The notes: a model not told the origin generated them from the sequence alone. Shown: positions 1 through 38,826, counted from the stretch's first letter. The stretch: 64,000 bases of DNA from Nitrosopumilus sp. (GCA_965197525.1 OZ240211.1:992001-1056000), one strand, 5' to 3'. Numbers and translations are program-made.

Positions 1-243
1 TTTGAGAAATTACAGTAGACGATTGCTTTATACTGCCAATATGAGCAGACTGCCAAACTAGAGTACATGGATAACTCCAACGAGAACCACAGATACAGCA
101 ACAATAACAAAAAAACCTACTGCTCCTACAAGGATTGACTATAAAGAAAAAAACATTGTGTATAGACGAATCATAATTTTTGATGGATTTAAGACTGAGT
201 CGTAAAGAGATTTATTGATTTTACAATAGGATTATAAACATTA

Positions 244-275
244 TTTCTTATGGTTCTGTCGGGTTAACGGGTGCT
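244..275 (+). repeat. Left TSD (TTTCTTAT, 244-251) and left TIR (GGTTCTGTCGGGTTAACGGGTGCT, 252-275)
   Basis: Exact reverse complement of 1508-1531; TSD identical to 1532-1539. Confidence 0.95.
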
Positions 276-280
276 GAGCA

Positions 281-290
281 ATAAATAATT
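281..290 (+). promoter_or_regulatory. Putative TATA box for tnpB
   Basis: ATAAATAATT lies about 20-30 nt upstream of the GTG at 311, just inside the left TIR. Confidence 0.45.
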
Positions 291-310
291 AACCTTGCAT
301 TCTATACTAC

Positions 311-1507
311 GTGTTGAAGGCACACAAGTCAATAGCACAAAAACATACTCCAAACTCCGACCTAATGGACATGATGGTTACATTCACAAAGATGGTCAAC
401 CACTGCATCAGGATCGGGTTAAGGGAAGATACCCACAACATGAAGCGGATGTCTATATTATGTTACCACGAACTCAGAAACTACGACATTTTATCTTCGT
501 ACAAACTCAATGCAATATCAAGAGCTGCCGGCATCCTGGCAAATAGAGATCAATCAGTCAAACGTGGCATCAAAGTTAGGTACCCAGTCGTAAAAAATCC
601 GTTTATCACAAACTGTTACGGCATAAAACATAATGGTGCTCTGTTGACAATCCCGTACAAGAACAGAAACCCTATCAACATCTTGCTGAACGAACACACT
701 CAAAAAATACTGTCCGATCCCGCCTTGACGGTATGCTCATTTTCATTGACTGCCTTCAACATCAGTCTTTGTATTTCGAAAGAAGTACGAGAGATAGAGT
801 GTACCAAGACAGTGGGAATAGACAGAAATCTTAGAAATGTAACCTGTGGAAATTACGAAGAGGTGACATTCTACAAAACCAACAAGTTGTTATCCATCAA
901 AGAGAACACAATACATGCTAGAACTGGTTTTCGCAGAAATGACCGAAGAAAGAAAGGTCAATTCTACAAAGAAAGGCAACGAAGAATGTCCAACAGAACG
1001 AAACAATACCTGCACAGAATCTCAAAAAGCATAGTGGATAACGCTGTCAAGAAGAAGACTGTCATCGTACTTGAGAATCTGAAAGGAATTAGAAAACTGT
1101 ACAAAAAAGGAAACGGTCAAGGTAACAAATACAGGCGTAGAATGAATGGATGGCAATTCTTTGAACTACAACGCCAAATAGAATACAAAGCCCAATGGGT
1201 CGGGCTCCCAATCAAATTTGTAGACCCAAAACGCACGAGCACGCAATGTCCAAGATGCGGAAAGAAACTCCAAGAGGACATGCAACACAGTCGTAAAATG
1301 TCGTGTAATAATTGCGGATTATACATGGATAGAGATATCATCGCTGCCATGAACATATCACGCAAACTGTCCCCTAGGTTTAGGGATAGTAGAGATGGCA
1401 TACATGAAGCGCAGTCTGGCATTTTTGAGCCAGCAATGATGGAATCCAGTACACCGGTAATCCAGATAGTCGATATGTCAAAGTCGGGTAGTCGGTGCGT
1501 TACTTGA
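311..1507 (+). CDS. tnpB: TnpB family RNA-guided endonuclease (398 aa)
   Basis: RuvC-I VGIDRN, RuvC-II VLENL, Zn ribbon CPRCG..CNNCG, RuvC-III DRDIIAAMNI; N-terminal LCYHELR helix typical of archaeal IS1341-like TnpB. Confidence 0.95.
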   Translation: MLKAHKSIAQKHTPNSDLMDMMVTFTKMVNHCIRIGLREDTHNMKRMSILCYHELRNYDILSSYKLNAISRAAGILANRDQSVKRGIKVRYPVVKNPFITNCYGIKHNGALLTIPYKNRNPINILLNEHTQKILSDPALTVCSFSLTAFNISLCISKEVREIECTKTVGIDRNLRNVTCGNYEEVTFYKTNKLLSIKENTIHARTGFRRNDRRKKGQFYKERQRRMSNRTKQYLHRISKSIVDNAVKKKTVIVLENLKGIRKLYKKGNGQGNKYRRRMNGWQFFELQRQIEYKAQWVGLPIKFVDPKRTSTQCPRCGKKLQEDMQHSRKMSCNNCGLYMDRDIIAAMNISRKLSPRFRDSRDGIHEAQSGIFEPAMMESSTPVIQIVDMSKSGSRCVT

Positions 1508-1531
1508 AGCACCCGTTAACCCGACAGAACC
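1367..1531 (+). ncRNA. Putative TnpB omega/reRNA scaffold overlapping the 3' end of tnpB and the right TIR
   Basis: Hairpin 1367-1389 with GGTT loop; hairpin CTGGC..GCCAG; terminal stem 1483-1525; 3' AACC complementary to the GGTT loop. Folded by eye. Confidence 0.6.
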
Positions 1532-1539
1532 TTTCTTAT
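1508..1539 (+). repeat. Right TIR (1508-1531) and right TSD (1532-1539)
   Basis: AGCACCCGTTAACCCGACAGAACC followed by TTTCTTAT; starts immediately after the tnpB stop codon. Confidence 0.95.
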
Positions 1540-1698
1540 ATACATCCAATATGTCTATCAGATATTACGTGGATAACCATTTGAAAATTCGTAACAGATA
1601 TTGTATAATTTGTACATTTTAACCGATATGTTTATCGTGTTGTCAACATACGGTACGATTTACACTTGTGCAGATTTACAAAATTTTAAAGACCTGTT

Positions 1699-1730
1699 TT
1701 CTTCTTCTTCTTCTTCTTCTTCTTCTTCTT
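1699..1730. repeat. (TTC)10 microsatellite
   Basis: Counted directly; intergenic. Confidence 0.95.
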
Positions 1731-1835
1731 GATCAATCTTGATATGTAATGGAATAACAAATACTGTAATCACATCCAGCTTCTAATCTCAACAATGTAA
1801 GATTAGCTAATAAAAATAAAAGAATGAAAAATCGA

Positions 1836-2597
1836 CTATTTCTTTGATTTGTTAACAAAGGCAGTCATACGTTCTTCTCTGTCAGGATGAGTAAAGCAGT
1901 TTCTCCAAGCAAGTAGTTCTATTGAAAGACCTGTATCAAGATCAGCGTTTCTTCCTTTGTTGATTGCAACCTTGGACATTTGAACACCCATTAGAGAGTT
2001 TTTAGCTATCGCTTGTGCCATCTTGAGGGTCTCTTCTTGCAATGATTCAAGAGGGACTACATGATTTACAAGACCAATCTCTTTGGCTTCTTGGGCTTTG
2101 ATTAGTTTACCAGTGTAAACGAGCTCTTTTGCCTTTGCAATGCCTACAATTCTCATCAATCTTTGTGTTCCACCCCATCCGGGAGGAATACCTATAGTAA
2201 CTTCTGGCTGGCCTAGTCGTGCGGTCTCAGATGCGATTCTAATATCACAAGACATTGCAAGTTCGCATCCTCCTCCTAGTGCAAAGCCATTAACTGCTGC
2301 AATAGTCGGCTGTTTGACCAATTCTACAGTCGCAGTAACTAGCTGACCAATCTTTGCATACTCTACTGACTCATCAGCAGATATCTTTGACATGTATTCA
2401 ATATCAGCACCTGCTGAAAATGCTTTTTGACCCTCACCAGTTAGGATAATAACTTTGACACTATCATCATGATTTAATGCTTCAAAAGTTTTGATTAGTT
2501 CTTTTGCAACATCAATATTCATGGCATTGAGTTTCTCTGGTCTGTTAATAGTAGCAGTGCATATCCCATCAGAAGTAGATGTTAAAACTAGCGACAT
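1836..2597 (-). CDS. Enoyl-CoA hydratase family; 3-hydroxypropionyl-CoA dehydratase/crotonyl-CoA hydratase of the 3HP/4HB cycle
   Basis: Crotonase motifs [19 protein letters not shown]; adjacent to the ADP-forming acyl-CoA synthetase as in Nitrosopumilus. Confidence 0.88.
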
Positions 2598-37173: not shown

Positions 37174-37206
37174 TGATTTAGGGTAATTATATACCTAGGT
37201 TACGTT
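37174..37206. repeat. TSD TGATTTAG (37174-37181) and TIR GGTAATTATATACCTAGGTTACGTT (37182-37206)
   Basis: 19/25 match to the reverse complement of 38794-38818; TSD repeated exactly at 38819-38826. Confidence 0.85.
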
Positions 37207-38818
37207 TCTGCACCAAGGTTTTTTTCTGACAGTCCAACAAATCATTCACAGCTTGGTTCTTGCCGTCTTTTTTAGAAACAACATGGTGTAAGCCATGTCT
37301 TGATTCTTCTGTCTTGTGACGATAGTCCCTACCGCCACTAATAATACTGACACTATTAGATGTGCCATTTTTATTAGCTAAAATAATATTTTCCATGCTG
37401 TCACACCTGTAGTTTCCATATCTGTCTACAAGCGGGAGCCTTCGTATGCACGGAAGTCCGTAATGTCTGATGTTTGTGCCGGCGTTATCGTCTGCATCGC
37501 ACAAAAATCCACAGTATACGCATTGAAACACATCCCTGGTAGTTCTAGAGTTGCTGTTGATCATATTGCACTTACTACACGTTATGCTGGTATAATGTGG
37601 AACAATCTCAAGCGTTTTGGTTCCGTGGTTTTCGGCAGTCATTTTTATTCTATCCCCCATTCTTCCCATACCTGCCCCGTAAATCTCCCTGTTAAGGCCG
37701 CTTTTCCGCTTTTCATTTTTTGCAGTCATATTGCCAATGTTTAGTTTTTCCATGACTATCACTCCTGTTCTCATCACAATCTGTTTGGCAAGGAAATTAT
37801 TGTGCTCGGTTCTTCTGTTGTTGAGTGTTTTCTTCATCCTCTTCAGTTTGCGATCCTCTTTTTTCCATCTGTTACTATGCAGTTTGTGGCCGTCTCTTTT
37901 TGACTGTTGTTCTGAGACTACATCGTCTTTTTTTCTCCTACAGGAATAAGGTGTCCTGTAAAAATCGGCATTTATTCCGTCATGAACGATTAGGGATCTC
38001 TTAACCCCCATGTCTATTCCGCATACGACTGTACGATCCGTATTTTTAGGTCTCTGTATTTTTAATGTCAGATGGATCTCAAACGTGCGGTTCGAATCGT
38101 TTGTATTGACAGTGATTTTTTTGGTGTTCTCTACAAGCCTGTATGATACAATGTTGGTCTGGTAGAACTTGTTGGTGCTGTTTTTGTCTTTTTCACATAC
38201 CATCTGCTTTGGAAGATTATTCAAAGACGACAACAGCTCCACCTGACCCATACCAGGCAGGTTCATGTACAGTTTTTTCCACTTTCCCATCCTTAGCGAG
38301 GGATGCTTACCGTTTACTGTTATGGATGCATGTTTTGCATTTTTGGCGTTTCTGAACAAACTGTTTCTGTCAATCCATTTGTTTGGTTTGAGATTTTTAA
38401 ATGACGTGTGCCAGTTGTGGTTCTTGCCACCAGTCTTTTTTGCCCAGTTTCGTACTCTGCGTTTTTTTGCGCAGGATTTCAAATGTTTGTCTGCCGTATC
38501 ATGCCCCTGTTGGAACGCAGTTGTTGCCACATTGGTGTGATATCTGTTGCTCCATGGCATGGTGTGATGTATGTCAGTAATGGTACGGCTTGTCTTGATT
38601 TTGTCATATTTTTCAACCAGTCCTGCCTCTACGCCCATGTTGAAAAAATACGTCTGAAAGTTTGCAATCCTGCGTGCCTTCAATGACAGTTCTTTTGTCT
38701 GCCTTGGTTTTACAATCACTGTTCTATAAATAAAATCTTCTATATCTTTTTCCATCCAGTTAATAGTCTGTGTATTATATATAATTGACGTATAATGTAA
38801 TCCAAGTATGTAATTCCC
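37182..38818 (-). mobile_element. Second TIR-bounded, tnpB-only element (imperfect 25-bp TIRs, 8-bp TSD), 1637 bp
   Basis: TIRs at 37182-37206 and 38794-38818, each directly abutting a TGATTTAG copy; inserted between divergent pyrD and nop5. Confidence 0.85.
37187..38755 (-). CDS. tnpB: Large TnpB family RNA-guided endonuclease (about 522 aa from MEKDIED)
   Basis: RuvC-I CGIDMG, RuvC-II VMEKLNI, Zn ribbon CSKC..CVYC, RuvC-III DADDNAGTNI. The ORF-track start at 38830 lies outside the element, so ATG 38755 is preferred. Confidence 0.88.
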   Translation of the reverse strand: MEKDIEDFIYRTVIVKPRQTKELSLKARRIANFQTYFFNMGVEAGLVEKYDKIKTSRTITDIHHTMPWSNRYHTNVATTAFQQGHDTADKHLKSCAKKRRVRNWAKKTGGKNHNWHTSFKNLKPNKWIDRNSLFRNAKNAKHASITVNGKHPSLRMGKWKKLYMNLPGMGQVELLSSLNNLPKQMVCEKDKNSTNKFYQTNIVSYRLVENTKKITVNTNDSNRTFEIHLTLKIQRPKNTDRTVVCGIDMGVKRSLIVHDGINADFYRTPYSCRRKKDDVVSEQQSKRDGHKLHSNRWKKEDRKLKRMKKTLNNRRTEHNNFLAKQIVMRTGVIVMEKLNIGNMTAKNEKRKSGLNREIYGAGMGRMGDRIKMTAENHGTKTLEIVPHYTSITCSKCNMINSNSRTTRDVFQCVYCGFLCDADDNAGTNIRHYGLPCIRRLPLVDRYGNYRCDSMENIILANKNGTSNSVSIISGGRDYRHKTEESRHGLHHVVSKKDGKNQAVNDLLDCQKKTLVQKRNLGI

Positions 38819-38826
38819 TGATTTAG
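38794..38826. repeat. TIR (38794-38818) and TSD TGATTTAG (38819-38826)
   Basis: Reverse complement of the TIR is GGGAATTACATACTTGGATTACATT. Confidence 0.85.

Follow-up and report, generated by a model that had tools for sequence, protein, structure and literature searches.

The 64,000-nucleotide (nt) stretch of a Nitrosopumilus sp. genome analysed here (GCA_965197525.1 OZ240211.1:992001-1056000, hereafter the window) carries a 1280-bp element whose sole long open reading frame (ORF) is tnpB, and it raises the question of whether one end of this element can be read both as a transposon end and as a part of the TnpB omegaRNA. The initial annotation had proposed that the right terminal inverted repeat (TIR) is built into the omegaRNA as a terminal stem and a pseudoknot strand, that the guide is captured at the TIR boundary, and that the arrangement is an integrated system, not chance nesting. 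According to the analysis described below, the last 24 bases of the element probably serve as an IS6-type end and also as the final omegaRNA stem and pseudoknot strand, with the guide starting at the boundary; we give this reading a rough probability of 0.8, and within it the binding of the RNA by TnpB and the cutting of the empty site are predictions.

The element occupies positions 252–1531 of the window, and all features below are on the plus strand. Its first and last 24 nt (252–275 and 1508–1531) are perfect TIRs, matching at 24 of 24 positions. An exact 8-bp direct repeat, TTTCTTAT, is found at 244–251 and again at 1532–1539 and represents the target-site duplication (TSD). The tnpB gene (311–1507) is intact and encodes 398 amino acids. 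Its product matches Pfam PF07282 (Cas12f1-like TNB; 6e-21, 74.8 bits against a cut-off of 26.3) and the NCBIfam model NF040570, guided_TnpB (133.3 bits against a cut-off of 100). The RuvC residues D171, E255 and D342 and the zinc-finger cysteines C313, C316, C332 and C335 are unchanged across 15 relatives. Judged by its sequence, tnpB here is an active-looking gene for an RNA-guided nuclease, for which cleavage is predicted.

The 3' end of the element folds strongly. When 1481–1531 was folded alone, exactly two stems (7 bp and 5–6 bp) and a free 6-nt tail, AGAACC, were obtained. The energy of this fold was -20.6 kcal/mol, compared with -10.9 ± 2.6 kcal/mol for shuffled sequences (z = -3.7), and none of 200 shuffles was as good; the left end of the element gave no comparable fold (z 0.07). 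In the resulting terminal hairpin (1483–1525), the 5' arm, or "anti-TIR" (1483–1498), lies in the coding tail of tnpB, the stop codon TGA (1505–1507) lies in the loop and adjoins the right TIR, and the 3' arm (1509–1525) corresponds to TIR positions 7–23. The right TIR, recognised by its inverted-repeat match and ending in the tip CAGAACC, would thus also be the final 24 nt of the omegaRNA scaffold. All of the bases named in the initial annotation were found where it had placed them, namely GTCGGGT (1483–1489) opposite ACCCGAC (1519–1525), GGTGC (1494–1498) opposite GCACC (1509–1513), the tail AGAACC (1526–1531) and an upstream GGTT (1377–1380).

To examine covariation, the 3' module was aligned across 41 distinct copies from the same genome and 33 relatives from other genomes (31–80% amino-acid identity), giving 74 sequences. 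Three helices are 89.6% paired in this alignment, compared with 66% for shuffled partners and 33–47% for slid partners, and their covariation score (0.599 versus 0.202) was reached by none of 500 shuffles. The first of them, hairpin A (1366–1390), is 90% paired, with double changes at six of its seven pairs. The second, a long-range helix found by RNAalifold between TGGCATA (1396–1402) and TATGTCA (1474–1480), is 98.3% paired and shows up to 13 double changes per pair. The outer stem of the terminal hairpin is about 80% paired, and its variable pairs switch, for example with GC in 11, AU in 10 and GU in 9 sequences at one pair; these pairs change between paralog subfamilies as well as in distant relatives. 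The covarying helices span 1366–1525, and the structured RNA overlaps the 3' end of tnpB and runs to the TIR tip. The terminal stems proposed for 1483–1525 are therefore borne out by their fold and by compensatory changes in about 40 paralogs and in relatives from other archaeal phyla, and the covariation that the initial annotation had named as a check is present for this stem and for the GGTT/AACC pairing described below.

The upstream hairpin had been placed at 1367–1389, with GGTT exposed in a 4-nt loop. GGTT is indeed in the loop, and the register had to be corrected: minimum-free-energy folding and compensatory changes among the paralogs (C1372T/G1384A and T1370C/A1386G) fix the stem of hairpin A as 1366–1373 paired with 1383–1390. 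Its loop (1374–1382, CTAGGTTTA) has 9 nt with GGTT(T) in the middle, which suits a pseudoknot better than a loop of 4 nt. The TIR interiors differ widely between subfamilies, and the tnpB tail of each subfamily holds a matching anti-TIR. When the arms of the terminal hairpin were exchanged between elements, the cognate pairs had a median energy of -9.1 kcal/mol versus -6.0 kcal/mol for non-cognate pairs, and 33 of 63 cognate pairs fell within the best tenth. A further hairpin inside the scaffold (CAGTCTGGC...GCCAGC, 1411–1433) was observed in copies of the Nitrosopumilus lineage only. Relatives in other genera lack it, which marks it as an insertion specific to this lineage that affects both the RNA and the tail of the protein.

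The pseudoknot would be formed between GGTT(T) in the loop of hairpin A (1377–1381) and the outermost bases of the element, (G)AACC (1527–1531), with pairing to 1527/8–1531. Within the genome of origin both strands are invariant, and distant relatives were therefore needed for a test of the pairing. Among 34 diverse elements, pairing across the four positions of the loop GGUU and AACC amounts to 96.3%. At the outermost position, 32 of them have G-C and 2 have A-U; at the third, 28 have U-A, 3 C-G and 2 U-G, and the pair is broken in one pseudogene. The covariation score was matched by none of 500 shuffles, and slid registers were 61–64% paired. The right ends used were either verified by a TSD or read by eye from the conserved CAG plus 4 nt; eight loci with an uncertain right boundary (L040, L049, L060, L067, L074, L077, L078 and L079) were left out of this formal test. 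Loop positions taken from the protein alignment are shifted by 3 nt for the most distant clade (L059 and L071). Automatic calling of the tip from TIR alignments was also tried (two schemes, 94 loci); it mis-set the boundary by repeat multiples or into the flanks, and the permutation p of about 0.2 obtained in this way was discarded.

In eight elements the tip strand changes jointly with the loop. The combination GGCT/AGCC is found in L068, L070, L072, L192 and L205, AGTT/AACT in L047 and AGTT/AATT in L069; in L196, from a metagenome, a GACAC loop stands opposite a GTGCC tip, with two pairs switched together. On the TnpB tree, GGCT/AGCC occurs in separate clades (L070; L072 together with L074) and AGTT with AACT or AATT forms a third group, L068 being unplaced because its ORF is too short. 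L192 and L205 came from the metagenome scan, and the end of L205 is verified by a TSD, with a matching left tip, GGCTCTGT. All elements with a GGTT loop have the tip AACC or a wobble-compatible one (such as AACT or AATC), and none has an incompatible tip. The core of the pseudoknot, GUU(Y)/(G)AAC, is its best-kept part. The GGTT/AACC pairing proposed at the outset thus covaries, with some uncompensated exceptions. Three distant relatives (L040, L049 from genome G059, and L067; 31–40% amino-acid identity) have a right end reading ...GAACAG instead of ...CAGAACC. The loop TGTTC of L040 and L049 could pair as GUUC/GAAC with 1–2 unpaired bases ahead of the guide; the ends of these elements cannot be fixed.

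Several findings weigh against the proposed dual role of the right end. At the second pseudoknot pair, A·C is present in one clade (L181, L183–187 and L194) and in L196; the outermost pair is A·C in L207 and L213 and U·C in L212, and a GGTC clade is without the fourth pair. In the largest paralog subfamily the terminal stem has C·C as its third pair, and an Rfam 15 scan of window positions 1–2000 (E ≤ 1) gave no family match. The GGTT of the loop doubles as the codons of Arg356 and Phe357 in a motif conserved in the protein, and AACC forms the conserved tip of IS6 ends; both strands have roles in the protein or for the transposase, so a part of their conservation needs no RNA pairing. The usual view of TnpB is that it helps transposons that are cut out: it cleaves the donor site left behind, and the element is thereby copied back into place. 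The copy-in transposition of IS6-type elements has no excision step (PMC6807381), so this usual rationale is not directly transferable here.

An alternative reading is that the terminal stem is real and the GGTT/AACC pairing is a by-product, with GGTT fixed by the Arg-Phe codons, AACC fixed by the IS6 transposase, and the true partner of the loop elsewhere. It would fit the invariance of both strands within the genome and the uncompensated changes in several lineages. It is at odds with the two-sided changes of the eight elements listed above and with the shuffled and slid controls. Moreover, the compensated loop variants bring amino-acid replacements (Phe to Leu and Arg to Gln), a cost that points to selection at the RNA level. 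In its placement adjacent to the guide the pairing also matches the pseudoknot of the ISDra2 omegaRNA, in which -5 to -3 pair with -103 to -105 beside the guide and -1 is unpaired (PMC10097598); since -1 is unpaired there, a weak outermost pair in the present elements is not surprising. We therefore regard a by-product as unlikely and prefer the pairing of the hairpin-A loop with the TIR tip.

Where the scaffold gives way to the guide was examined through the sequences flanking the copies. Across 32 copies in the genome, T occurs in 23 at position -11 from the left end, T in 30 at -10 and A or G in 31 at -9, and the motif TTR (R, A or G) lies directly 5' of the left TSD in 30 of them. For the window element this motif is TTA (241–243), abutting the left TSD copy on its 5' side. 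No motif signal was found in the TSD itself or in the right flank of these 32 copies, nor was there a mirror motif. Of the 17 youngest copies, defined by an identity of 98.4% or more to another copy, 16 have TTR. The motif also holds for TSD-verified elements in other genera, in one Asgard archaeon and in metagenomes, except that one element from Methanobacteriota has TTT. It flanks TnpB-less IS6 copies and miniature inverted-repeat transposable elements (MITEs) on 3 of 14 sides, and the autonomous copies on 0 of 8 sides (Fisher p 1.8e-6). The motif goes with the tnpB copies and is absent beside TnpB-less IS6, and is therefore tied to tnpB, not to the transposase. TTR looks like a T-rich target-adjacent motif (TAM) of the TnpB type.

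This arrangement bears on the junction. The empty site would read TAM, TSD and flank, and the RNA would read scaffold, TSD and flank; the two agree only if the scaffold ends at 1531 and the guide begins at 1532, which supports the proposed junction independently. The predicted guide (1532–1551, a length that is estimated) consists of the right TSD copy (1532–1539) and the adjoining flank, so that the 8-bp TSD would be the first eight guide bases. Guide capture at the TIR boundary, as suggested by the initial annotation, is supported by the position of TTR in the tnpB copies and its absence beside TnpB-less IS6. DNA contigs from related samples part from the window exactly at 1531/1532. Metatranscriptome contigs cover parts of 325–1485, and parts of the element occur in two sponge metatranscriptome runs and in two runs of one organism; all of these are assembled contigs, from which starts, ends, strand and level cannot be read, and their depth peaks sit in the parts of the element that paralogs share. 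The contigs from the two runs of one organism were also seen to leave the window at 1485 into the tail of another paralog and at 1532 into other flanks, a sign that related strains carry this right end at further sites.

The two tips of the element are not equally conserved. All 33 full-length copies retain an intact 7-nt right tip, CAGAACC, and 24 of the 33 an intact left tip (p 0.002), and the left tip is the more decayed end in several distant elements as well. A stronger conservation of the right tip is the pattern that added selection at the RNA level would produce.

The hairpin of anti-TIR and TIR might be real and yet not belong to a scaffold, acting instead as a terminator or read-through barrier, as a regulator of transposase binding at the right end, or as a DNA cruciform. 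The tnpB stop codon lies within its loop, and hairpins at the ends of insertion sequences often control expression, both of which would suit such a role. However, no U-run follows the hairpin, which is succeeded by the tail AGAACC and then by variable flank. TnpB-less IS6 copies with the same tips were searched for such a hairpin at both ends, and none was seen. The hairpin is also one of several covarying helices that form a TnpB-like scaffold closed by the pseudoknot, and the TAM geometry links its boundary to guide use. Taken with these points, a function outside the scaffold appears quite improbable, and a terminal stem within the omegaRNA is favoured.

The ends themselves are of the IS6 type. 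The host genome, a single contig of 2.21 Mb with 39.6% G+C whose closest relatives in public collections are labelled Nitrosopumilus or Nitrosopumilaceae, holds about 33 full-length intact tnpB paralogs (79–87% amino-acid identity to the window copy), one more distant copy, and about 10 deletion derivatives in which the 3' RNA module is retained. The right end of all copies is ...ACAGAACC, and most copies start with GGTTCTGT, which is the tip of the left TIR in the window (252–275) and is shared with the autonomous IS6 copies. Exact 8-bp TSDs were found for 22 of 32 paralogs. In the other 10 the TSDs are unmatched and the left TTR is usually kept, an outcome expected of intramolecular copy-in events or of recombination between copies. 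The same tips and 8-bp TSDs bound tnpB-less elements that encode 378–383-amino-acid proteins with SWIM and DDE_Tnp_IS240 domains (autonomous elements at genome positions 746475–748444, with its 378-amino-acid transposase at 746963–748096, 699962–703151, 1956395–1960520 and 583727–588872), and small MITEs with these tips are present too. The best NCBIfam model for the SWIM and DDE protein is the IS6 transposase, at 102.8 bits and under the cut-off of 125. One autonomous copy and one TnpB subfamily are identical in the first 19 TIR bases. The tnpB elements are non-autonomous IS6-type elements, and the window element was presumably mobilised in trans by an IS6-type transposase. It does not resemble an IS200/IS605 (IS1341-type) element, as it has TIRs and a TSD, an unfolded left end, and a TAM located 8 bp from that end.

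Other elements of the genome and window were noted alongside these copies. The roughly 33 copies of about 1.3 kb, together with fragments, make up about 2% of the 2.2-Mb genome. Elements of 380–500 bp bounded by the same TIRs retain the 3' omegaRNA module and are missing most of tnpB (genome positions 143852–144348, 803351–803738, 870887–871264, 516420–516797 and 736087–736573), three with exact 8-bp duplications; these are possible guide-RNA-only MITEs. A second TIR/TSD cassette lies at 37174–38826 of the window, with inverted repeats GGTAATTATATACC... and ...GGGAATTACATAC (reverse complement) and an 8-bp TSD, TGATTTAG. The triplet 5' of its TSD on the tnpB strand is not TTR. The gene in this cassette has no tblastn match to the window TnpB at E 1e-5 and therefore belongs to another family. 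Downstream of the element, eleven CTT units in a row occupy 1697–1729 of the intergenic flank. A search for the empty site with the right flank in 40 genomes of the genus found conservation in the neighbouring gene only, at about 84% or less, and no alignment was possible for the intergenic flank.

The same layout was found in relatives with 31–66% amino-acid identity from Nitrosotenuis, Nitrosotalea, Nitrososphaera, Asgard archaea, Bathyarchaeia, Methanobacteriota and metagenomes. Together with the about 33 intact copies in one genome, the occurrence of this architecture in several archaeal phyla supports an integrated system. That an ordinary IS1341-type tnpB element was inserted in, or captured by, an IS6 MITE, with a functionless complementarity between its 3' end and the TIR, could be suggested by the usual IS200/IS605 or IS607 contexts of TnpB and by the frequency of solo tnpB (PMC10691335), but it is very improbable and already contradicted by the single end tip shared by all intact copies and derivatives, by the common layout across archaeal groups, by the lack of any visible inner IS605-type ends, by the covariation of stem and pseudoknot with the TIR, and by the TAM lying outside the TSD.

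Two unrelated tnpB elements were observed at an identical site beside a tRNA gene in two genomes (L053 in G077:C6 and L071 in OY969559.1). Their interiors have no nucleotide similarity and their TnpBs belong to different clades, and the flanks are 79% and 95% identical. Both have the 8-bp TSD TAAAAGAC preceded directly by TTTG, and both end in GAGCC, a rare right tip. The shared site suggests re-use of the site or a swap of the element interior.

A sequence of events for the dual role of the TIR can be outlined. The SWIM and DDE (IS240/IS6-type) transposases of autonomous copies would move the element in trans, and their copy-in reaction would make the 8-bp TSD. The tnpB transcript would fold in its 3' portion (about 1366–1531) into hairpin A, the helix 1396–1402:1474–1480, the terminal hairpin 1483–1525 and the pseudoknot. 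In this fold the inner part of the right TIR would provide the 3' arm of the terminal hairpin, and GGUU(U) in the hairpin-A loop would pair with the last TIR bases, (G)AACC. The scaffold would end on the last base of the element, with the right TSD copy and flank as the guide. The complex of TnpB and RNA would then recognise and cut the uninterrupted site, which consists of TTR, the TSD sequence and the flank. An occupied site would be protected, because its right flank is preceded by ...ACC and its left TSD is followed by the TIR.

The predominance of TAM-adjacent insertions could be explained in two ways. TnpB may favour retention or spread of the element by cutting empty alleles, which would be repaired from the occupied one. 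Alternatively, TnpB may take part in target choice. In the latter case, recognition of the TAM by TnpB, with or without RNA, would help to choose or license insertion by the copy-in DDE transposase, with an 8-bp staggered cut just 3' of TTR. The presence of TTR at 16 of the 17 youngest copies, its absence beside TnpB-less IS6 and the common site and TSD of L053 and L071 would fit such licensing, which we nevertheless hold to be a doubtful proposition.

The proposed omegaRNA can be compared with that of ISDra2, an IS200/IS605 element known from cryo-EM (PMC10097598). The two systems agree in a structured RNA that includes the tnpB 3' end and has several stems and a guide-adjacent pseudoknot, in a guide (predicted for the present elements) taken from the DNA just beyond the right end, and in a T-rich TAM (here a candidate) 5' of the target. 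In contrast, the right end of ISDra2 is a hairpin for a Y1 (HUH) transposase, without TIR or TSD, whereas here it is a DDE-type IS6 TIR. The TAM of ISDra2 is the target site of its transposase and abuts the left end, whereas here an 8-bp TSD is placed between TAM and left end. The tip strand of the pseudoknot covers -5 or -4 to -1 here, compared with -5 to -3 in ISDra2.

TnpB has been linked with DDE transposases before. Altae-Tran et al. (2023) describe six DDE-transposase-associated TnpB branches, DDE-1 to DDE-6, in the main text of PMC10691335. As described there, these resemble the present elements in their inverted terminal repeats, in a tnpB gene whose 3' end is no more than 250 bp away from the end of the transposon, and in solo tnpB genes flanked by the ends of transposase-bearing copies. 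IS630 is the only DDE family named in that main text; ISL2, IS630 and IS1031 are those given in a 2026 review (PMC13565253). IS6 is not mentioned as a TnpB-linked family in either of these two texts, and overlap with one of the DDE branches is possible. In the literature consulted on DDE-associated TnpB, no base-level account of a TIR acting as scaffold was found. Fanzor1 and Fanzor2 are also similar, being TnpB homologues in DDE transposons with TIRs and TSDs, with an omegaRNA that reaches the transposon end. For Fanzors, the 2026 review describes a 5' TSD that is read within the TAM and a 3' TSD that is included in the scaffold (PMC13565253). Unlike this, the TSD of the present elements is variable, the TAM is outside it, and the 3' TSD is the predicted guide.

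On the transposase side, the IS6/IS26 family makes 8-bp TSDs and copy-in cointegrates, and its archaeal members form separate, distant branches (PMC6807381). The present elements share with the archaeal branch the 8-bp TSD, GGTTCTG-type tips and a DDE transposase that matches the IS240 and IS6 models; the window element differs in having tnpB in place of a transposase. The archaeal transposases found here are only distantly related to that of IS26, as seen in their score below the IS6 cut-off, and Harmer and Hall doubt that archaeal transposases belong to the IS6 family (PMC6807381). The occurrence of TnpB within DDE elements is thus already known. What appears new is a base-level case, built on comparative sequence evidence, for a DDE TIR as omegaRNA stem and pseudoknot strand. 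The geometry of TAM and TSD is also new, with the TAM outside the duplication and the duplication inside the predicted guide, and differs from those of both IS605 and Fanzor.

These results place a whole archaeal TnpB clade in IS6-ended elements of a copy-in family, with scaffold, tip and flanking TAM closely matched to each other. The same 24-nt sequence would be on double duty, read as DNA by a DDE transposase and as RNA by TnpB, and this is seen in the conservation of the right tip over the left. The about 40 paralogs with differing TIRs and matching anti-TIRs offer a natural series for defining a minimal scaffold and for engineering. If TnpB-licensed insertion were true, a TnpB and a DDE transposase would be coupled here in a natural and minimal way, akin to CRISPR-associated transposons. 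In these archaea, the role of a guide-RNA nuclease for a replicative transposon becomes a testable question.

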